This document shows, one piece after another, positions 3,857 to 44,881 of a DNA stretch of 64,000 nt; positions within the stretch are counted from its first letter, which is position 1, and each line of letters starts with the position of its first letter. Source of the DNA: Candidatus Peregrinibacteria bacterium (GTDB lineage Bacteria > Patescibacteriota > Gracilibacteria > Peribacterales > Peribacteraceae). The stretch is taken from the NCBI GenBank assembly GCA_016196225.1, contig JACPXZ010000029.1, forward strand, positions 24,849 to 88,848. The letters are read 5' to 3'. The notes under the pieces were generated by a model, which worked only from the letters and a program-made list of their open reading frames with translations, searched no databases and was not told where the DNA came from. The position numbers and the translations under genes are program-made.

Positions 3857-3880
3857 AGGGAGAGAGGGGAGAAATTTTTT
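3842..3880 (+). terminator. Putative intrinsic terminator
   Basis: The stem is tctctctccc / gggagagag(g) with loop gttgaa, which contains the stop codon. A T6 run lies at 3875-3880. Confidence 0.45.
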
Positions 3881-6158
3881 AGAACAACTCCATCTGGTTC
3901 TTTTTGTCAGACGAAGAAGGGATGAGGGACTGCAAATATTTTTTTACTTCTTTCCCATATTTTTTGGTTTCAAGACGTTCATCGGTCACCGTGATGATGC
4001 TTTCCGGTCTGGCAAACTGACAGAAGGTTCGGATAATCCGGAACAGTCTTTGTTCCAGTCGCGGAAGAGCATAATCGAGAAAAGGATTCTTATAATGGAG
4101 TGAGCGTCGTGCAATCGTGGGGTAGAGCGGACTATCAAACGGAAGAGTGGTGATCACGAGATGGTCGAGGGAGTCCGGAGGGAGCTCCAGTCCCTCGAAG
4201 ATCCATGGAGTGATGAGGAGAAGAGCAGGAGGACGACAAGCAGCGAATTCTGACTGGAAGCGCCCTTGTCCGCCACTGAATCCCTGGCAAAAAAGTGTGA
4301 CGCCTTTTTCTTCGAGAGATTCGGCATGAGTAATAAATACTTGTTCGATGGCATGTTTTCCGGGCATGAGAATGATTGTTTTCCCCTTGGGCGGGTTGGT
4401 AAGCGTGTGTTCAAGAGTATCCGGAGATGAAAATGAAAGAGTGCATGACTGGAGCAGAGATTCTGCCCGATGGATGCGAGAAGATGTTTGTGGGGGAAGA
4501 ACTTCTCGGAGGGGTCCGGCGCTTTCTGGAGGAATGAAAAGAGTGGTGGCAAACTTTTCATATAATGAAGAGCGGAGAATCTTATCAATGCATTCGGGAA
4601 CGGAGTGAATGATTTGTCCCCCATCCTGTCGACATTCGATCCATTCAATTCGCTGTGGCAGACCTTCTATCTCAAGGAAGTGGTGGAGATTTTTGAGTGT
4701 GGATGATAGTTGAGGAGAGAGGGTTTTTTTAATGAGGTGTAACAACTGTTCCACAAGACCATGAACATCGGGAGTGGTAAGGTTTTTTTGTGTAATAATG
4801 AATGTATCCTTCATGGCACGCGTTTTCTCGATCCAGAGTTGTAGGAGATCAGTAAACTGGATAAGGGTTGCATCTCCTATGGCAGCGGCGCGGAGATCAT
4901 CGAGGTTCAGCGACCAGCCGTATGCTTTGGTCGCCGTCTCTTCCAGTACGGATGCATCATCAATAATGATATGTGTTTTTTCATTCAAGGCATTATGTGC
5001 GGCATGCGCCGGATCGGCGAGGAACGCGAGGAGTTGACGATGATCAATGATCAATGTGTGGGGAAGTTCCGTGAACTGTTGAATATAGGGCAAAGAAGTA
5101 TCCGTACAGGCGGTTTTTCCGTTCCAGACGAATCGTTCATTGCCATGGATGGGCAAATCAGCGCGAGAACGGGGTTCGTACCATGCAAGTTTGATCGCAA
5201 GTGTTGTCTCATCAGCAGTAAAAGACTCCTGGTGAGCAAAATCTCCGGCAATACGTGTATCGGGTAGAAGGAACGGGGGCCAGAGAATACGAGCGTGTTT
5301 CGGGATATGAAGAGTACGGACGGTGCGTTCGAGGTTTTTTACAGCAATCCAGTGGATGGTATCCGGATCTTCGCTGCACGCGTTGATGACTCCCTGCAAG
5401 AATCCCGGTTCAAGAGGTTCCTCAACCAAATCGACAACTCCCCTCTCGGGTTTTTGTAATTTGTAATTTGCCGAAGGCCCTGCCGCAGGCCCTGAGCCCG
5501 TCGAACGGGAGCTTGCCGAATGGGGAATTTTTAACCAAGCCGGTTGTTTTTTTTTGGTCGAAACTGGAATAGAAGAAAAGAATAGTTTATATGCCGGTGC
5601 GCTTCTTTTCCCAGTATTTCTTGCAATACCGAGCAGTTCCTCCGGTACTTCCTGTAAACGTTTCCAGCATCGCTCGATAAGTTCGAGTGTTGCATGAACA
5701 TCGCCGAGCGCTCGGTGCACCGGTTCGTGATGAAGCCCCAGAAGAGTACTGACATAGCCGAGGGAGTAGCTATCGAGTTCAGGGAAAACAAGAGACGAAA
5801 TCATGGAGGTATCGATCCATGGACGATCGGAGATATCAAGGCCTGCGCCTTTGAGCATGGCAATATCGAAGCCGACATTTTGTCCCATGATGAGCGTATC
5901 GGTTCCGATATGTGAGAGTATCGTCTCTCTCTTGTCGAGAAATGTGGGCTGACCAGTAAGATCGTTCTGGTGAATACGAGTGAGGGCTTTGGTCACTGCA
6001 GGAAGTTCTTCGGCAATGGAAAAAAGCTGAGTATATTCGTCCACAATCTTCCCGTTCTCTATGCGTACGCTGGCAAATTCGATAACCGTATGTACACGGG
6101 GAATGAGCCCGGTGGTCTCGGTATCAAGAACGGTGAAGGGAAAGGTGGGGAGGTTCAT
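3879..6158 (-). CDS. dinG: DinG-like protein: DEDDh 3'-5' exonuclease domain fused to a degenerate DinG/Rad3-type helicase-like domain
   Basis: Exonuclease motifs are present: VLDTETTGL, GQNVGFDIAML, HRALGDVHAT. The C-terminus has helicase_C_2-like blocks (GKTIILMPG.., LLLITPWIFEGLELP, LVITTLPFDSP). I found no canonical Walker A, and the DEAH box reads IIDDAS. Confidence 0.8.
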   Translation of the reverse strand: MNLPTFPFTVLDTETTGLIPRVHTVIEFASVRIENGKIVDEYTQLFSIAEELPAVTKALTRIHQNDLTGQPTFLDKRETILSHIGTDTLIMGQNVGFDIAMLKGAGLDISDRPWIDTSMISSLVFPELDSYSLGYVSTLLGLHHEPVHRALGDVHATLELIERCWKRLQEVPEELLGIARNTGKRSAPAYKLFFSSIPVSTKKKQPAWLKIPHSASSRSTGSGPAAGPSANYKLQKPERGVVDLVEEPLEPGFLQGVINACSEDPDTIHWIAVKNLERTVRTLHIPKHARILWPPFLLPDTRIAGDFAHQESFTADETTLAIKLAWYEPRSRADLPIHGNERFVWNGKTACTDTSLPYIQQFTELPHTLIIDHRQLLAFLADPAHAAHNALNEKTHIIIDDASVLEETATKAYGWSLNLDDLRAAAIGDATLIQFTDLLQLWIEKTRAMKDTFIITQKNLTTPDVHGLVEQLLHLIKKTLSPQLSSTLKNLHHFLEIEGLPQRIEWIECRQDGGQIIHSVPECIDKILRSSLYEKFATTLFIPPESAGPLREVLPPQTSSRIHRAESLLQSCTLSFSSPDTLEHTLTNPPKGKTIILMPGKHAIEQVFITHAESLEEKGVTLFCQGFSGGQGRFQSEFAACRPPALLLITPWIFEGLELPPDSLDHLVITTLPFDSPLYPTIARRSLHYKNPFLDYALPRLEQRLFRIIRTFCQFARPESIITVTDERLETKKYGKEVKKYLQSLIPSSSDKKNQMELF

Positions 6159-13406: not shown

Positions 13407-14741
13407 ATGGGTATTATGGACGTACGGTACAAGATATGTGGTGGTATCCCCTTGCAGGGAGAAGTGACGGTTAGCGGATCCAAGAATGCGGCGCTTCCGC
13501 TCATTGCCGCTACGCTCCTCATCACAGAAGAGGAAACGGTTTTCACAAACGTTCCGGACATTCGCGACGTCCGGTCGATGATCAATATTTTGGAGTTTTT
13601 GGGTGCTGATGTTACTTTCGAAGCAGGGACGCTCCGTATATCAGCACGGGATATAAAAAATCGTCCGTTGCCCGGTGATCTTGTATCCCGATTCCGGGCA
13701 TCGATCCTCCTCCTCGGTCCCCTTTTGGCACGTTTTGGTGTTGTCAGCATGGCGTATCCGGGTGGTTGTGTCCTTGGCAAGCGTTCCATTGATGCCCATA
13801 TCGCGGTCTTTGAACAACTGGGTGCACGAAATATGAGTACGGAGGATACGTTGCACTTGCAGGGAACACTGACACCAACACACATCACGTTACCGGAGTT
13901 TTCAGTTACCGCGACGGAGAATGCCATTCTTGCGGCATCTATTCTCCCGGGTGAGACTCGGATCGATCTTGCCGCATGTGAGCCGCATGTACAGGATCTC
14001 TGCCGTTTTTTGGTCAAACGAGGAGTCACTATCGCCGGTACGGGATCGCATGTGTTATGTGTACGAGGGGTGCCATCACTTTTTTCTTCATCTCCTCACC
14101 GCATCATTCCGGATGATTTGGAAATCGGTGTCATGGTGGCGGCGGCACTCACCACACGAGGAACGATTGTTCTCCAGGATGTGTGCAAAGAGCATCTGGT
14201 CAGTTTTCTCGAAGTCGTGCGTCGTATAGGAGGACAGTTTTCCTATGATGAAAACACGAAGAAGCTCCGGGTAGACGGTGCGGAGTCCCGACTTAAGAGT
14301 GTGCACATTAAAACGAATATATTCCCCGGTTTTCCAACGGATCTTCTGCCCCCGATGGGTGTGGTATTGACCCAGGCGCTGGGAGTGACCCGATTATTTG
14401 AGCGACTCTACGAAGGACGGATGGCCTATCTTTATGAGCTCGAAAAGATGGGTGCTCATGTCGAGTTTTTGAATGTGCACCAAGCGTTGATCATAGGACC
14501 GACAGAGCTGCGCGGGCGCATCGTTGCCAGTAACGATATCCGAGCCGGAGCGGCAATGGTTGTGGCTGGGTTAACGGCGGATGGAGAGACAGTCATCACC
14601 GATGTTCAGTACATTGAGCGAGGATATGATCGGCTGCATGAGAAGTTGCAAAAGCTGGGAGCAAATATTGAGCGCCAAGAGGGAGAATCCCAAGGAAAAA
14701 ATCGCAATATCAGACCTGTCCCCTTGATTCTTCGGTCATAA
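13407..14741 (+). CDS. murA: UDP-N-acetylglucosamine 1-carboxyvinyltransferase MurA
   Basis: The sequence reads ..GGIPLQGEVTVSGSKNAALPLIAATLL..AYPGGCVLGKRSIDAHI..FPGFPTDLLPPM..IRAGAAMVVAGLTADGETV. An alternative ATG lies 9 nt downstream. Confidence 0.93.
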   Translation: MGIMDVRYKICGGIPLQGEVTVSGSKNAALPLIAATLLITEEETVFTNVPDIRDVRSMINILEFLGADVTFEAGTLRISARDIKNRPLPGDLVSRFRASILLLGPLLARFGVVSMAYPGGCVLGKRSIDAHIAVFEQLGARNMSTEDTLHLQGTLTPTHITLPEFSVTATENAILAASILPGETRIDLAACEPHVQDLCRFLVKRGVTIAGTGSHVLCVRGVPSLFSSSPHRIIPDDLEIGVMVAAALTTRGTIVLQDVCKEHLVSFLEVVRRIGGQFSYDENTKKLRVDGAESRLKSVHIKTNIFPGFPTDLLPPMGVVLTQALGVTRLFERLYEGRMAYLYELEKMGAHVEFLNVHQALIIGPTELRGRIVASNDIRAGAAMVVAGLTADGETVITDVQYIERGYDRLHEKLQKLGANIERQEGESQGKNRNIRPVPLILRS

Positions 14742-14757
14742 TTCTTAATCTGTTCGT

Positions 14758-15288
14758 ATGCTTGTCTTTGCCGCTCAAAAAGATGCCGGGATCCAGTGTA
14801 CCGGTGGCCAGCAGCCACTTTTGGTATACCCCTCCGGGAGCAGCGATCCCAAAGGGGTGACTCTCCTTGGGATTCCGGAGGAGCAGCCACGAGCGAAGGT
14901 ATTTTCGTGGCCGGGAGAATATAACAGTGCGGGGATGACTTTGCGGGGGATTGGTCACACCGAGGGGCGGCAGGTATCTTTTGTAGCCGTGATCAATAGC
15001 GTCCGGTGTGCGTTTATTTCTTCTCCCCTCCATGAGTGGACTGATCACGAACTGGAGCTTCTGGGAGATATTGCGGTTCTCGTTGTTCCCGCTGAAAAAC
15101 CGAAGATACTTCAAAAAATCATTGATGAGGTGGATCCGCGGGTGTTGGTGTTGGTCCCGGCAGGAGGCAAGATGGATCCGGAAGTGTTGAGTGTCTGCGG
15201 AGCAAAGACCGTCGATCCGGTTTCGGAATATAAATTGAAAGGAGCACTGCCGGCCGAAGGACGGGAAGTGGTGATATTGAAGAACTAG
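14758..15288 (+). CDS. Hypothetical protein (weak resemblance to MBL-fold/Lactamase_B_3-like proteins; no HxHxDH motif seen)
   Basis: The + strand ORF has plausible composition (..VFSWPGEYNSAGMTLRGIG..). The overlapping minus-strand ORF 14710..15291 looks like a shadow ORF. Confidence 0.45.
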   Translation: MLVFAAQKDAGIQCTGGQQPLLVYPSGSSDPKGVTLLGIPEEQPRAKVFSWPGEYNSAGMTLRGIGHTEGRQVSFVAVINSVRCAFISSPLHEWTDHELELLGDIAVLVVPAEKPKILQKIIDEVDPRVLVLVPAGGKMDPEVLSVCGAKTVDPVSEYKLKGALPAEGREVVILKN

Positions 15289-15331
15289 CATATAGCATCA
15301 TTGGTATCGTTCACCTAAGCTCTGAGGGAGC

Positions 15332-31550: not shown

Positions 31551-32528
31551 TCAAAATCCTTCATCAAAATCATCAAAGCCTTCTTCCTGACTTTCTTCAA
31601 GAAGATCATTGAGCTCTTCGAGTCCATCTTGGATTTCCTCAAGTTTTTCTTGCAGTCCTTCGATTTGTTCCTGATATCTCTCGATCTTCATTTCAATTTT
31701 TTCCTTCTTTTTTTCGTTTGTTGCCTTTGCGAGTTTTTTCTCTTCACTTGCAATCTTTTTCTCTGTCTTGGCAATGAGTTTTTCCACCTTCACTTCTGCC
31801 TTTTCTAGCTGCGCGATCTGTCGTTCGATCTGTGAAGTATCCATATGATCTCCTTCACCCCCCATCATCCCGCCACCCATTCTTCCTCCTTCACCCCCCA
31901 TCATCCCGCCACCCATTCTTCCTCCTTCACCCCCCATCATCCCGCCACCCATTCTTCCTCCTTCACCCCCCATCATCCCGCCACCCATTCTTCCCCCTTC
32001 ACCACCCATCATCCCCCCTTCTCTTCCCATACCACCACCTTCTTTTTTAAATCCTCCTCCTACACTAATTCCCCGTTTATCCTGCGGCTCACCAAATCTC
32101 CCACCCTGTCCAAATCCACGATTACCTTCCCTCCCTTCTCCCATTCCCCCTTCTCTCCCCCCCTGTGGCTCACCAAATCTTCCACCCTGTCCAAATCCAC
32201 GATTCCCCTGCTGATTACCTGCTCCATGCATCATATCCCCCTGTTCCCCTCCCTGCATCATCCCCCCATGTCCCCCTCCCTGATAACCACCGAAGTCCGA
32301 ACCATCGTGCATTTGAGTGCCACCACCATCGTATCCACCTCCCGCGCCACCTGATGCTGGATACTCCATGGATCCAGTGGGACTCCCTGATCCTTCGGTA
32401 TGTTGTCCGGTATCCATGCTGCCCGTTTGATCTTGGGCAAGCGACAGAGTCGAGGCCGCGACAGCCCCGGATACAGCGGCTGCAACTAAACTTAAAACAG
32501 ACAGACTATTTTTCCCAAAAACTGACAT
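31551..32528 (-). CDS. Secreted Gly/Met-rich low-complexity repeat protein with C-terminal coiled coil and acidic tail
   Basis: It has a signal peptide (MSVFGKNSLSVLSLVAAAVSGAVAASTLSLA/QD) and a long G/M/E/R/Q low-complexity region. That region includes 4x GGEGGRMGGGMM and 2x NRGFGQGGRFGEPQ. A Lys/Glu heptad-like region follows, ending ..EEGFDDFDEGF. Confidence 0.75.
   Translation of the reverse strand: MSVFGKNSLSVLSLVAAAVSGAVAASTLSLAQDQTGSMDTGQHTEGSGSPTGSMEYPASGGAGGGYDGGGTQMHDGSDFGGYQGGGHGGMMQGGEQGDMMHGAGNQQGNRGFGQGGRFGEPQGGREGGMGEGREGNRGFGQGGRFGEPQDKRGISVGGGFKKEGGGMGREGGMMGGEGGRMGGGMMGGEGGRMGGGMMGGEGGRMGGGMMGGEGGRMGGGMMGGEGDHMDTSQIERQIAQLEKAEVKVEKLIAKTEKKIASEEKKLAKATNEKKKEKIEMKIERYQEQIEGLQEKLEEIQDGLEELNDLLEESQEEGFDDFDEGF
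31851..31994 (-). repeat. Four identical in-frame 36-bp tandem repeats (plus degenerate flanking copies)
   Basis: The unit tccttcaccccccatcatcccgccacccattcttcc starts at 31851, 31887, 31923 and 31959. It encodes GGEGGRMGGGMM on the minus strand. Confidence 0.95.
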
Positions 32529-32613
32529 AGAACGTATTGGTATGTATATAAAAGATAACATGTATATTATACATAAAATACATATTTATTGCAATATGCT
32601 CGTATTCCTTTTT

Positions 32614-38574: not shown

Positions 38575-39630
38575 ATGACTAAGGATCTTTATGCTGTATT
38601 GGGATTGGAACGCAATGCGTCTATTGACGACATCAAGAAGGCATACCGCCGTTTAAGCAAAGAGTTGCATCCCGATCGACAAAAAGGAAACAAAGAAACC
38701 GAAAAGCGTTTTAAGGAGGTAAACGAAGCGTACGAAATCCTTTCGGATGCGAAAAAAAAAGAGTCGTATGATCGTTTTGGATACGATGCCCGGTCGAGTG
38801 GATTCCATGGGAGCCCCTTTGAGGGATTTTCTGCAGAGGGGTTTGGCGGTTTGGGGGACATCTTCGAACAATTTTTCGGAGGGGGCAAACGCACCGGATC
38901 GCAAGCGCGAGGAGAGGATCATGAAGTGCAGGTGCAGATTTCGTTTAAAGAATCGGCAGAAGGAATCGAAAAACCCATCACGTTTGCCCGAACTGTTTCT
39001 TGTGAAGAGTGCGGAGGGACCGGCGGACAGCGGGAAGCGCAGATGATTTCCTGTGAAAAATGCGGAGGGACCGGTCAAGTCCGACGCGCGACCCCGTCGT
39101 TTTTTGGTGAGATTTTGGAGCGTGTACTTTGCGAGGGGTGTCGGGGGTCCGGCCGTGTTCCCAATCGATTATGTACGCATTGTCGCGGGGAAGGACATGT
39201 CCGCGTATCTCAAGAGGAAAAAGTGCATATTCCCGCTGGTATTGCAGATGGGCAGACCATTCGTATTCAGGGTAAGGGGGATGTTGGATTTCGTGGAGGA
39301 AGCCCCGGTGATCTTTTTGTGACCGTTCGTGTTCTGAACGATAAGCGGTTTACGCGCGATGGGAATGACGTGCGTTCGACTGTACATGTTCCGCTTATCA
39401 CGGCACTTCTCGGTGGGGAGTGCCCGATTGATACAGTGCAAGATACTGCCACATTAAAGATTCCAGCCGGTACCCAATCGCATCAACTCTTTCGTCTCCG
39501 TGGTAAAGGGATGCCGGTAGTGGGGACATCTCGGTACGGTGATCATTATGCGACAGTGGTGGTGGACATTCCGACAAAACTTTCCCGGCGTGAGCAGGAA
39601 TTGATTGAAGAATGGCAATCACTAGCCTAA
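38575..39630 (+). CDS. dnaJ: Molecular chaperone DnaJ
   Basis: It has a J domain (..[12 protein letters not shown]..), a G/F region and four CxxCxGxG zinc-finger motifs. Confidence 0.94.
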
Positions 39631-40173
39631 TCAGACGTCTAGATTGTCTAATCCGGTATCCTCAATAATCGGCGCGAGTTCACCATCGGAGGATTCTTTT
39701 GCCTTTTGATCTTCTTTGAGTCGCAGGACCACTTGCCGGTAATCCCCTTCTCCCGTGCTCTCCGTGGTAAGATCTTGAAGAGTGGGAGACCCTGCGATGT
39801 GAAGGTGAACCATCCGACGTAAATAAGGATTCATGGGGGGGAGGGCGATGCGAGCGCCTGTACGGCGGACAAAATCAGCCTTTTGTTCGGCCATGCGGCA
39901 GACTTTTTCCTCCTGCAAGCGGCGATACCCGTCGACATCCAGAATGAGGAACGGGGCTCGGGACAATTGATTCGCCTCACGGACAATAGATTTGAGAAGG
40001 TGCTGAAGAGCATTGAGCGTTTCGCCATGCCATCCGATGAGGCGGCTAGCATGAGGAGAGTTAAGATCGATGCGAATAAAATCCTGTTCCTCGGTGATGG
40101 AAATATTTTCAAACGGGAGCGCAAGGGCAGTGAGGAGGCCGGAAAGAATTTCCTTGATCCTGTTATGGTCCAT
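39631..40173 (-). CDS. jag: Jag/KhpB-like RNA-binding protein (KH + R3H domains)
   Basis: The sequence reads ..LIGWHGETLNALQHLL.. (KH-like) and ..LPPMNPYLRRMVHLHI.. (R3H). Confidence 0.75.
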   Translation of the reverse strand: MDHNRIKEILSGLLTALALPFENISITEEQDFIRIDLNSPHASRLIGWHGETLNALQHLLKSIVREANQLSRAPFLILDVDGYRRLQEEKVCRMAEQKADFVRRTGARIALPPMNPYLRRMVHLHIAGSPTLQDLTTESTGEGDYRQVVLRLKEDQKAKESSDGELAPIIEDTGLDNLDV

Positions 40174-40251: not shown

Positions 40252-40533
40252 TTAACGAACGGCATCTTTAAGAGTCTTGCCTGCCTTGAAGGATGGAACC
40301 TTCATAGCAGGGATGGAGATACGCTCGGTGGGGTTGCGAGGATTGACACCCATGCGGGCAGCTCTCTTGGAAACACGGAAAGTACCAAAACCGGTGATCG
40401 TAACATTGTTGCCACGCTTCAACTCTTTCGTGACCGTCGAAGTAAGAGCTTCAAGAGCGAGGGCAGAGGCGCGCTTGGTGATGCCGGCAGCATCCGCCAG
40501 GAGAGCAATAAGATCCTGCTTGGACATAGACAT
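40252..40533 (-). CDS. hup: DNA-binding protein HU
   Basis: The sequence is MSMSKQDLIALLADAAGITKRASALALEALTSTVTKELKRGNNVTITGFGTFRVSKRAARMGVNPRNPTERISIPAMKVPSFKAGKTLKDAV. The rest of ORF 40252..41607 is antisense to topA. Confidence 0.92.
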   Translation of the reverse strand: MSMSKQDLIALLADAAGITKRASALALEALTSTVTKELKRGNNVTITGFGTFRVSKRAARMGVNPRNPTERISIPAMKVPSFKAGKTLKDAVR

Positions 40534-40704
40534 ACGTGAGAGGGGTAAAGAATTATAGAAACATTCGTGAGTGTACGCAGAGTTTAGCGCCTTGCAAGCT
40601 GCATAGGATGTTTTTAGGCTTGGTAAAGCGATACAAGATATGTAATTGGCTTTTTTTAGCCAAAAAGGTTGAGCAAAAAAGTTATTGTTCTCTGCGAACT
40701 CCTT

Positions 40705-40743: not shown

Positions 40744-43080
40744 ATGCCGCGTCATCTCGTCATTGTCGAAAGCCCCGCGAAGGCGAAAACGATTAAAAAA
40801 TTTCTCGGCAAAGACTATATCGTGGAAGCGAGCATGGGACACATTCGTGATCTGCCGAAAAGCGGGCTCGGGATCGATGTCGCAAACAATTTCGAACCGA
40901 CGTACGAAGTGTCCGAAGGAAAGGAATCGGTCGTGAAAAAATTGCAGGCGGCGCTGAAAAATTCCAATGACCTCTGGATCGCGACTGATGAAGATCGTGA
41001 AGGAGAAGCCATTGGGTGGCACCTGACCCAGGCGTTGAAGGTGAAAAAGGGTGATGCTGTAAAACGAATCGTCTTCCATGAAATCACGGAAAGCGCGATC
41101 CAGGAGGCGATCGCGCATCCGCGCACGATCGATCAAAAACTCGTCGACGCGCAAGCGGCGCGGCGCATTCTCGACAGACTCGTCGGGTACACGCTTTCCC
41201 CGTTCCTGTGGAAAAAGGTTTACTCGGGCTTGAGCGCGGGCCGTGTGCAATCGGTCGCGGTGCGGATCATCGTCGATCGCGATCGCGAAATCAAAGCGTT
41301 CAAAGTGCGCGAGTATTGGTCCATTGAGGCGCTTCTCGAAACCGGCAAGAAGGAAAATTTCTCCGCGTTCCTCTCGCAGAAAAACGGGGAAAAGCTGGAA
41401 CCCACAACGAAAGAAGAAACAGAGGAGATACTGAAAAATATCAAGGATAAACCTTTTGCGGTTGTGAGCGTGGAAGAGAAGGAGCTCACGCGCAATCCTG
41501 CGTCTCCTTTCACGACCTCTACGCTGCAGCAGGAAGCCGCGCGGAAACTCGGATTCTCCGTGAAGCAGACGATGGTCGTAGCGCAACAACTCTACGAAGC
41601 GGGCCATATCACCTACATGCGTACGGACTCCGTAAATTTGAGCAAGAAGGCGCTCAACGATGCCACGCAGGCGATCGAGAAATCATTTGGGCGCGAGTAC
41701 GTGCTGAGTAGCCCGCGCATATATAAGACGAAGGCGAAGGGCGCGCAGGAAGCGCACGAAGCGATCCGTCCAACGGAAATGGAGCGCACACCAAAGAGTG
41801 TGGAAGATACGCTCGATCATCAGCAACTCAAGCTCTATACGCTGATCTGGAATCGAACGATCGCGACCCAAATGCCAGCGGCGCAGTTTAAACGTATAGG
41901 AGCAGATATCACGGTGGATGCCTACACTTTTCGTGCCACTGGACAAACGGTGATCTTCGATGGATTTTTGCGCGCGTACAGTGAAGGGAAAGATGAAGAT
42001 GCGGGGCAAGACGAGGATGGGGAGAAATTTTTGCCACCCCTCGCCGTCGGCAATGCGCTTGTGTGTAATGAACTGAAGCCGGAGCAGCACTTTACCAAAC
42101 CCCCTGCGCGTTACACCGAAGCGTCGCTCGTAAAAAAATTGGAGGAGGAAGGCATTGGCCGTCCGAGCACCTACGCGCCGACGATCAGTACGATTCAGCA
42201 GCGCGGTTACATCCGTAAAGACGGCAGGAATCTTATTCCCGAAGATATTGCATTTACGGTGACGGATCTGCTCGCCGAGCACTTCCCCGATATCGTGAAT
42301 CTCGCTTTCACCGCGGAGATGGAGCAATCGCTCGATGACATTGCGGAAGGCGGTAACGAGAGCACGAAGTTTCTGCGCGGATTTTTCGGTCCGTTCAAAA
42401 AGCTTGTCGACAGCAAGACGAAGGAAATCAAAAAAACAGATGTACTGAAAGAACGTGTGCTCGGGACGGATCCCAAGACCGGTCTTGAGGTGCTCGTGCG
42501 CACGGGGCGCTTTGGACACTACGTGCAACTTGGTCGGCTGGAGCCAAAGGAGAAGAACCCCCCTTCGCCCCGAGGGCTTCGTGGGGCAAGAAAGAAAAAA
42601 GGTGAAGGGCCGAGGACAGCGGGCGTCCCCAAGCATTTGAGTATCGATGACGTGACGCTCCCGCAGGCACTCGGACTCCTGAGTTTTCCGCGCGTGCTTG
42701 GGCAGTACGGTGGCAATGACCTCTCGGTGATCCTTGGGCGCTTCGGCCCGTACATGAAGTGCGGCGATCTGACTGCTGCCCTCCCCAAGGAAGTGGAGCC
42801 GGCGAGCGTAGATCTTGCACAAGCGATCGAACTTTTCACCACTGCAGCAGAAAGAAAGAAGCAAGCGGCACTACCGCTCCGTACGCTTGGGAAGGATCCG
42901 ACAACGGGAGGAGAAATACTTGTCAAAGACGGTCGCTATGGACCGTATGTAACGGATGGGAAAACGAATGCATCGCTCGGTAAAAAGTTTGATCCCCTCT
43001 CCATAACCCTTGAGCAGGCCGTCGAGTTGCTTGTTAAAAAACGTGCGCGTCCTCCTCGCAAATGGGGGAATAAGAAGTGA
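40744..43080 (+). CDS. topA: DNA topoisomerase I
   Basis: It has a TOPRIM N-terminus (MPRHLVIVESPAKAKTIKKFLG..), an active-site region ..ITYMRTDS.. and a basic C-terminus. Confidence 0.95.
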   Translation: MPRHLVIVESPAKAKTIKKFLGKDYIVEASMGHIRDLPKSGLGIDVANNFEPTYEVSEGKESVVKKLQAALKNSNDLWIATDEDREGEAIGWHLTQALKVKKGDAVKRIVFHEITESAIQEAIAHPRTIDQKLVDAQAARRILDRLVGYTLSPFLWKKVYSGLSAGRVQSVAVRIIVDRDREIKAFKVREYWSIEALLETGKKENFSAFLSQKNGEKLEPTTKEETEEILKNIKDKPFAVVSVEEKELTRNPASPFTTSTLQQEAARKLGFSVKQTMVVAQQLYEAGHITYMRTDSVNLSKKALNDATQAIEKSFGREYVLSSPRIYKTKAKGAQEAHEAIRPTEMERTPKSVEDTLDHQQLKLYTLIWNRTIATQMPAAQFKRIGADITVDAYTFRATGQTVIFDGFLRAYSEGKDEDAGQDEDGEKFLPPLAVGNALVCNELKPEQHFTKPPARYTEASLVKKLEEEGIGRPSTYAPTISTIQQRGYIRKDGRNLIPEDIAFTVTDLLAEHFPDIVNLAFTAEMEQSLDDIAEGGNESTKFLRGFFGPFKKLVDSKTKEIKKTDVLKERVLGTDPKTGLEVLVRTGRFGHYVQLGRLEPKEKNPPSPRGLRGARKKKGEGPRTAGVPKHLSIDDVTLPQALGLLSFPRVLGQYGGNDLSVILGRFGPYMKCGDLTAALPKEVEPASVDLAQAIELFTTAAERKKQAALPLRTLGKDPTTGGEILVKDGRYGPYVTDGKTNASLGKKFDPLSITLEQAVELLVKKRARPPRKWGNKK

Positions 43081-43386
43081 TCACCCCATGATCATCCTAA
43101 TGATCAACCCCATTTTCCCTCGGTGATCATGAATACTCAAATGACTCATCATGATCATGATCATTTTATGTATCTATTTGAACACTCGATACTAAGGCAT
43201 GATGATTTTATCTATATTTAGGGCTAAAACGAAATTAAAAATAGTACATATCAATCCCCTCTCATTCGTGGGATGATCATGATCAGTGTATGATCACTGC
43301 CTGATCATCGGGTGATCACCGAGCGGAACGCCTGATGAGATTGACTAGTCATGATCACTTCATGATCAGTATCATGATCATGATCA
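43078..43386. repeat. Array of 15 TGATCA palindromes in two blocks (6 + 9) flanking an AT-rich core of about 107 bp
   Basis: Hexamer starts are 43078, 43089, 43101, 43124, 43152, 43158 | 43274, 43280, 43291, 43302, 43313, 43352, 43363, 43375, 43381. Most spacings are 11-12 bp, or 6 bp for abutting sites. Confidence 0.95.
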
Positions 43387-43895
43387 TGAAGGCTGAGTTT
43401 TTGACCATTAAAGAGGCGGCAGATCGATTTGGAAGGGCAGAGATCACCGTTCGTCGTCTGGTGCGACAGGTTGTGCAGAAGAAAAACACTCCCAATCGCC
43501 GTTTTATCCGCCCCGGCATCATGGACGCGGAGCGTTTCCAAAAAAAGAAGAAGCCCTACGCATATTCGATTAGCACGGATTTGCTCAAAAAAGCCTACGG
43601 TGCTGCATTAGAAAAAGTCGCAGAGGTTCTCACTGATAAACAATCGGATACCGAGATCTTCGAGGGGTCATTGGCACATGTCCTACGCAAGGCCAATGAG
43701 CAGCTGGAAAAGCAATTAAGTGTCAAAGATGAGCAAATCAAGGCACTTAATCAGACCTTAGAAGATCTTTCCGAGCGGCAGCGAGAGACCAATATTCTCA
43801 TGAAGGGATTACAGGAACGACTTCTTATCGAGTCGCCGCGTAGGCGGTGGTGGAGGTTTTGGAGGAAGGAGAGGACAAGGTTTGATGGACAATAA
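43386..43895 (+). CDS. Excisionase/MerR-superfamily HTH protein with coiled-coil and basic Trp/Arg C-terminus
   Basis: The sequence is MKAEFLTIKEAADRFGRAEITVRRLVRQVV.. (HTH_17-like), then ..QLEKQLSVKDEQIKALNQTLEDLSERQRE.. (coiled coil), ending RRRWWRFWRKERTR. The start is uncertain; the in-frame ATG at 43335 lies inside the repeat array. Confidence 0.65.
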   Translation: MKAEFLTIKEAADRFGRAEITVRRLVRQVVQKKNTPNRRFIRPGIMDAERFQKKKKPYAYSISTDLLKKAYGAALEKVAEVLTDKQSDTEIFEGSLAHVLRKANEQLEKQLSVKDEQIKALNQTLEDLSERQRETNILMKGLQERLLIESPRRRWWRFWRKERTRFDGQ

Positions 43896-44742
43896 AATCC
43901 AGTACCAGTTTTTGGGCATTGTCCGAGTATTGTGCGAGTTGCGATGGGGGATCATTCACTTGATCCCCTTTAAGACGGTCCAGAAGCACGGCGCAGACGA
44001 TGCCGGCAGGGATCCGGGCCCGCGAACAGAAGGCGGCAAACATCGTGGATTCCATCTCGATGTTGCGCACCCCTCGAAGATGAGCGAGTTTCCAAAAAAG
44101 TTCCCGTTCCTTGGGAGAATAGGGAGGATCGAGCGCTCCATCAAAGCGCGCCTGTCCTTCATAAAAATCGTCCGTTCCCATGGTTTTTCCGAGAACGACA
44201 GGGAAGGATTCTTTGATGTTCAGCAACTGCGCGGCAAGAAGGGCATCGACATTCGTAGAGCAATATTTACGTGATCCGAGCATAACATGCTCAAAGACGG
44301 GCTCGAGTTCGGCATTCACCGCTTGCTCTGTAACGACAACAGAACCGGGTTTGACCCCGATGCCTCCGGAGGTCCCGATGCGGATAAAGAGGGGATCGGC
44401 ACATTCGGCATAATGGAGGAGCTTGGTGATCTCATTGAGAAGGATCGACATCGATGGCATTCCCATGCCATGAGAGACGGAGATCACCGGCCCCACCTTG
44501 TAGAGAGAGAATCGATCAGTTTTTCCAATGGGTTTTAAGCCTCTATTGTGGGGGATAGAAAGACCAAGGACCTCTGCCGTTTTTTCTGCAAAATCTTTCG
44601 CGCGCTCATTGCTCCCCCCCATACAGACAAACTTCGTGTCCCCAAATATGCTCTTGAGGTCCATCGTCGAATCGAGTCCCAAGTGATAGAGGTAATCAAC
44701 GGGGAGGTCTTGGAGGTGGGGATTCAGTACAGAGATGTCCAT
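43825..44742 (-). CDS. udp: Uridine phosphorylase (long, UPP1-like form of the PNP/UDP_1 family)
   Basis: The sequence reads ..FVCMGGSNERAKDF..YKVGPVISVSHGMGMPSMSILLNEITKLL..IRIGTSGGIG..DFYEGQARFDGA..GVRNIEMESTMFAAF.. Confidence 0.85.
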   Translation of the reverse strand: MDISVLNPHLQDLPVDYLYHLGLDSTMDLKSIFGDTKFVCMGGSNERAKDFAEKTAEVLGLSIPHNRGLKPIGKTDRFSLYKVGPVISVSHGMGMPSMSILLNEITKLLHYAECADPLFIRIGTSGGIGVKPGSVVVTEQAVNAELEPVFEHVMLGSRKYCSTNVDALLAAQLLNIKESFPVVLGKTMGTDDFYEGQARFDGALDPPYSPKERELFWKLAHLRGVRNIEMESTMFAAFCSRARIPAGIVCAVLLDRLKGDQVNDPPSQLAQYSDNAQKLVLDFIVHQTLSSPSSKTSTTAYAATR

Positions 44743-44805: not shown

Positions 44806-44881
44806 AGGCGCTTAGCTCAGTTGGTAGAGCGTCGGTCTCCAAAACCGAAGGTCGTAGGTTCGATCCCTACAGCGCCTGCCA
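44806..44881 (+). tRNA. tRNA-Trp (anticodon CCA), CCA encoded
   Basis: A manual cloverleaf fits: AGGCGCU-UA-GCUC-AGUUGGUA-GAGC-G-UCGGU-CUCCAAA-ACCGA-AGGUC-GUAGG-UUCGAUC-CCUAC-AGCGCCU-G-CCA. Confidence 0.95.

Follow-up and report, generated by a model that had tools for sequence, protein, structure and literature searches.

Fifteen copies of the palindrome TGATCA are packed into positions 43078–43386 of a 64,000-nucleotide stretch of DNA from a Candidatus Peregrinibacteria bacterium (contig JACPXZ010000029.1; the whole stretch is referred to as the window). They fill the space between topA, which encodes DNA topoisomerase I, and a co-directional gene for a 169-residue protein with a winged helix–turn–helix (HTH) domain and a predicted coiled coil. 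The array accompanies this gene throughout the Peribacteria, an uncultivated lineage of the candidate phyla radiation (CPR), and the comparison of related loci makes it likely that the protein of 43386–43895 binds the array. The interpretation favored here, held as a whole and including autorepression with moderate confidence, is that of a centromere-like, self-regulating binding array for a single-protein DNA–membrane tether of the kind represented by RocS and the plasmid Par proteins. Its most specific part, a function in membrane tethering or segregation, is drawn by analogy with these proteins and is put forward tentatively.

The TGATCA array and its conservation

The array spans 309 bp and holds 15 TGATCA hexamers, with 26 more copies across the remaining 63.7 kb (41 in the window). 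At the background rate 0.13 copies are expected per 309 bp, which gives a Poisson probability of 2e-26 for at least 15. Dinucleotide shuffles of the window average 28 copies and never exceed 39, as opposed to the 41 observed. In the rest of the window, TGATCA is about as frequent as a Markov model predicts (26 copies versus 29 expected); an earlier note on this DNA had noticed scattered copies there by eye. The other close pairs fall within open reading frames (ORFs): 5041/5048 in 3879–6158 and 14990/15042 in 14710–15291, both on the minus strand. GATC is neutral in the window (492 observed versus 503 expected). Among other palindromic tetramers, CTAG is scarce window-wide (20 versus 37 expected from the Markov model), and GTAC and CATG, like GATC, are near expectation.

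The sites form two blocks, neither of which is assigned to a strand. The distal block (43078–43163) contains six hexamers starting at 43078, 43089, 43101, 43124, 43152, and 43158, together with a degenerate TGACTCA at 43142. The proximal block (43274–43386) contains nine, starting at 43274, 43280, 43291, 43302, 43313, 43352, 43363, 43375, and 43381, together with TGATGA at 43333 and the palindrome TGACTAGTCA at 43342. Start-to-start distances are 11, 12, 23, 28, and 6 bp in the distal block, 116 bp from one block to the other, and 6, 11, 11, 11, 39, 11, 12, and 6 bp in the proximal block. Sites abut in ATGATCATGATCA, which is present three times (43151, 43273, and 43374). The first site overlaps the stop codon of topA (TGA, 43078–43080) and the last overlaps the start codon of the 169-residue protein (ATG, 43386). 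The 110-bp core between the blocks (43164–43273) has a GC content of 31%, compared with 50% for the window. The earlier note had given all 15 start coordinates, the spacing of 11–12 and 6 bp with its threefold abutting sites, both degenerate copies, the AT-rich core, and the overlap with the ATG; the array is real and confirmed in every one of these details. The spacing recurs in relatives: across 20 related loci, it peaks at 11 (19 cases), 12 (9), and 6 bp (8), with harmonics at 22–24 and 33–36 bp.

The order topA–TGATCA cluster–gene is found in 15 of 15 Peribacteria species representatives of GTDB and in the related loci L001–L005, the fuller order being DnaJ–KhpB–(HU)–topA–intergenic region–gene. 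A search for the same array and HTH gene in synteny among relatives, which the earlier note had suggested as a check, thus finds the pair kept in all 15 representatives. Each Peribacteria locus contains 2–12 TGATCA within 450 bp 5′ of the gene. The association extends to other carriers of the gene. In homologues on integrative elements, which are accompanied by genes for an integrase, Replic_Relax, a primase, PIN, and Fic, the sites upstream of the gene make up 7 of 12 (L006) and 9 of 13 (L056) of the locus total; for a homologue in a metagenome-assembled genome of the Pirellulaceae, five of seven lie upstream. Pooled over 21 loci, the upstream 400 bp contain 137 TGATCA versus 6.5 expected, a 21-fold enrichment. 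Many homologues are annotated with N-terminal extensions (MISIMIM, SHDQ, and HDH) that are translated TGATCA repeats.

The hexamers themselves are constrained. When the window is aligned with L001 and L002, 81 of 90 hexamer columns are invariant as opposed to 55 of 109 spacer and 57 of 110 core columns (Fisher p = 1e-9). A flank preference, CATGATCATG, is confined to arrays, and the non-GATC variants TGACCA/TGGTCA, TAGTCA, and ATGATTA are also enriched in array regions. The distal block is kept in L001 and L002 and is present in a diverged form in L008, L011–L016, and L020. L003, L009, and L021 have neither core nor distal block and contain two to three sites in an intergenic region of 109–136 bp. 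In the more distant CPR loci L026 and L027, the HTH sequence is different and so is the upstream repeat, which is of the AGACAAGACAGG type. In L026 (5240–5640), these repeats are arranged as two blocks in inverted orientation, with about 250 bp of AT-rich core between them. Those of L027 (about 5370–5460) form a tandem array that runs into Ns, beyond which nothing is readable. The homologues of L026 and L027 are 292–309 residues long and share a conserved synteny of CCA-adding enzyme, membrane protein, and gene. Taken together, synteny, site counts, enrichment, constraint, and co-variation make the adjacent protein the best candidate for the binder of the array.

The proteins of the 15 species representatives are 42–83% identical, 11 residues of the protein are invariant, and protein and sites are both under strong purifying selection. 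This bears on the possibility that the array is a relic, decaying or neutral, of a mobile-element maintenance module for partition or replication control that came to lie beside topA. The integrative elements described above, and alphaproteobacterial relatives that adjoin tRNA genes, lend this idea some substance, but it is very unlikely given that topA synteny persists at such divergence in 15 species representatives without element genes nearby, that residues and sites are constrained as described, and that in other CPR classes the gene has a conserved chromosomal context of its own.

The core contains two further motifs in addition to its AT-richness. A strand-specific yTAGGGCTc lies in the core of all two-block loci, 165–232 nt 5′ of the start codon (TAGGGCT at 43219–43225, plus strand, in the window). 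This type of motif is seen in the window, L001, L002, L008, L011–L020, and L022; in counts over 21 loci, AGGGCTC occurs in 11 and TAGGGCT in 10, with 0.4–0.5 expected. TAGGGCT was considered as a general promoter motif and rejected, its six copies in the window comparing with 3.3 expected; the sole other nearby copy (43552) falls within the HTH gene. The second motif is C-rich and CACTCCCCTAC-like (ATCAATCCCCTC, 43250–43261, in the window), and adjoins TGATCA arrays in L006, L008, L013, L018, L023, and L056, which comprise chromosomal, mobile-element, and planctomycete loci. A known RNA in the core or array was rejected as well: Rfam finds only four tRNAs at its gathering threshold over the window, and matches in 42950–43500 are at chance level. 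The folding of the 5′ region (z = −2.5) is uninformative since self-complementary TGATCA repeats are expected to fold. Hairpin repeats of the repetitive extragenic palindrome or miniature inverted-repeat transposable element type (GTAGAGACGCAC-N5-GTGCGTCTCTAC) occur at variable spots in the topA–gene intergenic regions of several Peribacteria (L008, L011, L012, L013, L015, and L020).

The 169-residue protein and its relatives

The AlphaFold2 model of the protein (mean predicted local distance difference test score [pLDDT] of 85.5) consists of a winged HTH domain at residues 5–63 (strand, three helices, and wing; pLDDT above 90), a weakly predicted variable linker, a long helix at residues 93–146 (pLDDT 91–94) with a heptad-like conserved sequence, and a terminal amphipathic helix rich in basic and aromatic residues at 154–168 (RRWWRFWRK). 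The description of the gene product as an excisionase-type HTH protein with a coiled coil, proposed from the translation in the earlier note, is correct by this model and by the HTH_17 domain of relatives. In CPR relatives, HTH_17 scores above the Pfam threshold, and 26 of the 144 family representatives contain it; the window protein itself has no significant match in sequence searches of Pfam, NCBIfam, PHROGs, and the PDB.

Three sets were used for family comparisons: 36 word-indexed homologues, 144 representatives, and a narrow Peribacteria profile. An exhaustive profile search extends the family to 923 clusters at 50% identity, with members from Peribacteria and other CPR lineages as well as from planctomycetes and integrative elements. 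The family alignment shows the HTH motif FLTIKEAAxRYxKAEITIRRLVR and an almost invariant coiled-coil segment, QLxVKDEQIxxLxxxLDxLSERQRETNILMKGLQERL; three glutamines (Q110, Q117, and Q143) are invariant in the family. The tail has the consensus KRxWWxxW, and the final 12 residues of 30 of the 36 members include at least two aromatics and carry a net positive charge. The window protein continues for nine residues beyond the aromatic patch. The hydrophobic moment of RRWWRFWRK is 1.12, compared with 0.48 for a MinD and 0.80 for an FtsA sequence, and values of 1.1–1.2 are obtained for the tails of eight members, among them the window protein. In other CPR classes and in planctomycetes, the tails read KKGFWGGLFGK, KKGLFGRLFK, GFFGKIFR, or GVFGRLFRR. 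Three alphaproteobacterial proteins (L035, L037, and L045) share only the C-terminal coiled-coil segment (VKDxQI...RETNxL...GLQ) and have no amphipathic tail. Those of L035 and L037 are encoded directly after tRNA genes, and that of L045 is fused to an N terminus that appears integrase-like by eye; these contexts suggest integrative elements.

This domain order is that of a small group of tether and partition proteins. RocS has 163 residues and comprises a winged HTH (1–55), a coiled coil (68–146, with DUF536 at 104–146), and a MinD-like amphipathic helix (153–163) that binds the membrane only with multivalency; Par, the single-protein partition factor of plasmid pSK1, has the DUF536–helix module in common with it (PMC11500499). 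In a published paper, the tail of the staphylococcal plasmid Par, KKGFWSRLFGS, was called practically identical to the MinD helix. RicO recognizes nine specific origin-proximal sites (ricS) and bridges the DNA to the membrane, its distribution beyond Firmicutes being left open in the preprint (bioRxiv 10.64898/2026.03.06.710092). RocS and RicO are like the window protein in their near-identical size and domain order and in being chromosomally encoded. For this comparison, the winged HTH of the window protein is counted from residue 1 to about 63. They are described only in Firmicutes, and they differ in their sites: RocS binds DNA without a defined site and RicO uses nine dispersed ones, whereas here a single dense array adjoins the gene. 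Direct sequence similarity of the Peribacteria subfamily to RocS/RicO-type proteins is not detectable.

Par of the pSK1 type resembles the family in its N-terminal winged HTH, central coiled coil (a predicted one in the family), C-terminal MinD-like helix, and lack of a nucleoside triphosphatase (NTPase) partner, and its tail comes close to the KKGFWGGLFGK or KKGLFGRLFK of the CPR relatives. In the par locus of pSK62, moreover, TAGGTA-type repeats abut the gene's own start codon as the TGATCA array does here. Par differs in being plasmid-borne in Firmicutes, as opposed to a chromosomal, class-wide locus in Peribacteria; its repeats have another sequence and are mostly direct rather than 6-bp palindromes; it has a long acidic linker before the helix, unlike the window protein; and a two-block layout with a core is not seen in the par upstream region that was read.

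A protein search with Par of pN315 returned near-identical sequences only, and therefore a Par profile was built from eight staphylococcal plasmid Par (DUF536) proteins. With hhalign, the 144-member family profile aligns to it collinearly over 169 columns (91.4%, E 9e-7), compared with 4% (E 0.0097, 11 columns) for a control with Par reversed. The C-terminal halves, that is, the helix tail, give 86.5% (E 4.6e-6, 12 columns), the HTH halves alone give 41% (E 2.8e-4, 17 columns), and the narrow Peribacteria profile gives 1.3% (E 0.04, 16 columns). The three invariant glutamines are not aligned by hhalign to the NQQ...Q of Par, and a tblastn search with the coiled-coil segment matched an unrelated 542-residue protein, which was discarded. 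The window protein has no match to the Pfam DUF536 model (PF04394) even below threshold. Judged from these profiles, the coiled-coil core is not demonstrably DUF536; the family is not a demonstrated DUF536 member and is taken to work like the RocS/RicO/Par kind, to which it is probably distantly related.

Proposed mode of action and alternative explanations

The array is proposed to be a cis-acting docking site for the protein encoded directly downstream. Herein, coiled-coil dimers would set one winged HTH onto each TGATCA (extended consensus CATGATCATG); orientation would be irrelevant since the hexamer is palindromic. The phasing of 11–12 bp would place the proteins on one face of the helix and allow a cooperative coating of each block, comparable to arrays of Xis, BldC, and ParR. 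The amphipathic helices clustered in this manner could reach the multivalency needed for membrane binding, and the locus would be tethered in a centromere- or anchor-like fashion. Such tethering would serve the positioning or segregation of the chromosome.

Autorepression would be built into the same arrangement. The only promoter-like match of a consensus scan, TAGTCA-18 nt-TATCAT (43346–43375, plus strand), lies within the proximal block, and none is found in the core. Its −10-like TATCAT ends 10 nt 5′ of the ATG, which leaves a short leader or none and no Shine–Dalgarno sequence. Four TGATCA sites overlap the spacer of this element, its −10-like hexamer, and the gene start. Of 21 loci, 12 contain TATCATG and 6 contain TAGCATG (0.2–0.3 expected); most related loci have a −10-like TAKCAT near the start, which in 12 of 22 is fused to a TGAYCA site. 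As the promoter-like element sits inside the proximal block with its −10 fused to sites, binding should repress the gene, and occupancy of the four promoter-proximal sites would be the step that does so.

The same overlap with the −10-like element and the start codon is what an ordinary autoregulatory operator would show, its protein being a plain repressor (perhaps also of topA read-through) without any tethering. The loci L003, L009, and L021, with their short intergenic regions and few sites, have the look of a simple operator, and topA and the gene run in the same direction without a terminator-like site separating them. Still, 15 phased sites in two blocks over 300 bp go far beyond the needs of autorepression, a plain repressor has no use for the strongly conserved amphipathic helix and the conserved coiled-coil segment, and both architecture and tail correspond to those of known tether and partition proteins (PMC11500499). 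An operator and nothing else is considered unlikely.

Every perfect site contains GATC, and methylation-sensitive binding to GATC-containing iterons is known elsewhere, as in RctB, SeqA, and Pap. The array might hence be read as a Dam-type (GATC) or BclI-type (TGATCA) methylation switch or sequestration site with a SeqA-like reader. This is scarcely probable as the principal explanation: the ORFs examined, all of them within the window, include no adenine methyltransferase, GATC and TGATCA frequencies are neutral outside the array, and the conserved unit CATGATCATG is longer than GATC and is co-enriched with variants that lack it. A methylation switch could coexist with docking of the downstream protein.

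The earlier note had named a parC-like centromere and operator, a replication origin, and a Dam-sensitive switch without choosing among them. An origin could be chromosomal or that of an integrated replicon; the repeats would then be iterons or GATC sequestration sites around an AT-rich unwinding element and the protein an initiator or accessory factor. Two repeat blocks around an AT-rich core beside the gene of a putative binder do fit such a layout, the element-borne homologues adjoin Replic_Relax and primase genes, and the iterons of Vibrio ori2 contain a GATC site. For Ca. Peribacter riflensis, an origin that cannot readily be recognized from gene content and has short repeats nearby is reported (PMC4736985), which has been counted in favor of an origin here. 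The GC skew, set beforehand as the test, decides otherwise: it is +0.094 over the left 43 kb and +0.099 over the right 20 kb, the cumulative skew is monotonic over 64 kb, and no consistent switch is seen at the array in 19 related loci. No DnaA box TTATCCACA with at most one mismatch exists between 41215 and 44379. The AT-richness of the core is not conserved either, with a core GC content of 26–34% only in genomes of about 50% GC and 50–55% in those of 59–63% GC, and several lineages (L003, L009, and L021) do without core or distal block. Database searches reveal no initiator-like domain in the protein. The array is not a replication origin. This reading was dropped in view of the GC skew, the lack of DnaA boxes, and a core whose AT-richness is not conserved, and it has the smallest probability of all those considered; the skew of the window also argues against equating the locus with the Ca. 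Peribacter riflensis origin.

The earlier note had also compared the array with the centromere and operator parC of plasmid R1, in which two phased repeat blocks flank a promoter-containing core, and the centromere is at the same time the operator of the downstream gene (PMC2241845). The array here likewise has two blocks of helically phased short repeats around a core, with the promoter-like match lying in the proximal block. The essential part of the comparison, an array bound by the small protein encoded downstream, is supported by the TGATCA clusters tracking the protein family throughout one class, on mobile elements, and in a second phylum, and by the constraint on the hexamers. The components are different: ParR is a ribbon–helix–helix protein that needs the actin-like ParM, whereas the array is flanked by topA and, beyond the winged HTH gene, by PNP_UDP_1, with neither ParM or ParA nor homology to ParR. 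The NTPase-less RocS/RicO/pSK1-Par type is the better match. Two anchors of Bacillus subtilis provide further points of comparison. RacA anchors the chromosome by binding palindromic centromere-like repeats (PMC4914108) and resembles the window protein in its MerR-like winged HTH and coiled coil; it is unlike it in having no amphipathic helix (its anchor is DivIVA), in its GC-rich 14-bp sites dispersed near the origin, and in being sporulation-specific. Noc is a sequence-specific DNA binder that recruits DNA to the membrane through a weak amphipathic helix, which binds only when multimerized on DNA (PMC4331003). It differs in being a CTPase of the ParB family whose helix is N-terminal and whose 16-bp sites, about 70 in number, are dispersed, and it has no homology to the window protein.

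Several observations weigh against docking and tethering by the downstream protein. A homologue in L057 keeps the ITIRR recognition helix with no TGATCA nearby, and a 6-bp palindrome is unusually short as an HTH site. A single array is seen in the 64-kb window, as opposed to the several dispersed sites of RicO and RacA. Instead of the MinD-type GFxxRLFG, the tail in Peribacteria has a Trp-rich WWxxW (RRWWRFW). The hhalign signal stems mainly from the HTH start and the helix tail, the coiled-coil core adding little; the narrow Peribacteria profile alone shows no similarity to Par; and Pfam DUF536 is matched only below threshold, in 6 of 36 (best E 0.0018) and 3 of 144 (best E 7e-4) family members. 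Foldseek finds no significant match in the PDB, with Tn916 Xis and RacA (RacA–DNA chains included) as weak, domain-level matches only. The conserved core motif TAGGGCTC has no explanation in the model, and the C-rich CACTCCCCT motif near arrays, including those of mobile elements, does not fit it. In addition, metagenome and viral collections were scanned in the reverse direction for TGATCA-N5-TGATCA-N5-TGATCA, and no family member is encoded at 137 phased-array loci among the matches listed. These loci consist of satellites and unrelated arrays. The scan is uninformative on Peribacteria, and the occurrence of phased arrays in unrelated contexts means that the TGATCA motif alone is not diagnostic.

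Some individual TGATCA clusters deserve mention in their own right. On the viral contig L187 (IMG/VR), nine TGATCA (4346–4641) lie directly 5′ of a gene for a ParM-like (StbA_N) actin, and this array is likely a type II centromere that uses the same hexamer. In L106, 13 phased gTGATCAc sites are located about 365 bp from an ORF with a BEN domain. Secondary mini-clusters are present in L013 (10064–10449), L015 (6297–6480), and L020 (11312–11573); they were rejected as binding arrays, being codons (GLITDQ) inside a gene that looks YfiH/Cu-oxidase_4-like by eye.

Genomic surroundings and meaning for the CPR

Upstream of the array, the window encodes DnaJ (38575–39630, plus strand), KhpB/Jag (39631–40173, minus strand), HU (about 40252–40536, minus strand), and topA (40744–43080, plus strand). 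The gene of the 169-residue protein (43386–43895, plus strand) is followed by a convergent gene for a PNP_UDP_1 phosphorylase (43825–44742, minus strand), tRNA-Trp (44806–44881, plus strand), and an M23 peptidase (after 44881, plus strand). The 3′ ends of the HTH and PNP_UDP_1 genes overlap by 71 bp (43825–43895), compared with 47 bp in L001 and L002. The remaining window is of housekeeping character (NusA, SecA, a MurA-family enzyme, SerRS, UvrB, RecJ, GatA, CysRS, and glycosyltransferases). No integrase, ParA, or ParM was found among the ORFs scanned, and no dnaA or dnaN among the 40 larger ones. An integrase-linked excisionase was rejected on this neighborhood: next downstream comes a nucleoside phosphorylase gene, the tRNA-Trp is unrelated, and an integrase is missing. 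A near-perfect 36-bp tandem repeat (31850–32015; 4.6 copies, 98% matches) lies in the ORF 31551–32561 on the minus strand, which encodes 336 residues without a Pfam match, and coincides with the only local GC-skew inversion of the window.

Chromosome organization and segregation in the CPR are essentially undescribed, and RocS, RicO, and pSK1 Par are recent discoveries. It is a tentative proposal that a single-protein, NTPase-less system of the RocS/Par type positions or segregates the chromosome in Peribacteria, and probably in many other CPR, with the two-block array of up to 15 phased sites, kept beside topA and HU, as a centromere that is legible from sequence. Such a system would be the first RocS/RicO/Par-type case outside Firmicutes. 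If this holds true, tethers of this type would be an ancient and widespread family on chromosomes and mobile elements far beyond Firmicutes, each member with its own co-evolving repeat array, and a frequent "hypothetical protein" of genome annotation would receive a name. The mechanism of RocS, RicO, and Par still has gaps, among them what the conserved coiled-coil segment does and whether a partner protein takes part. The Peribacteria branch offers a precisely defined, high-density cis site, which is absent for RocS, and the family offers a natural example of concerted change in protein and site; recognition, cooperative assembly, and tethering are thereby open to tests in vitro and in heterologous hosts.

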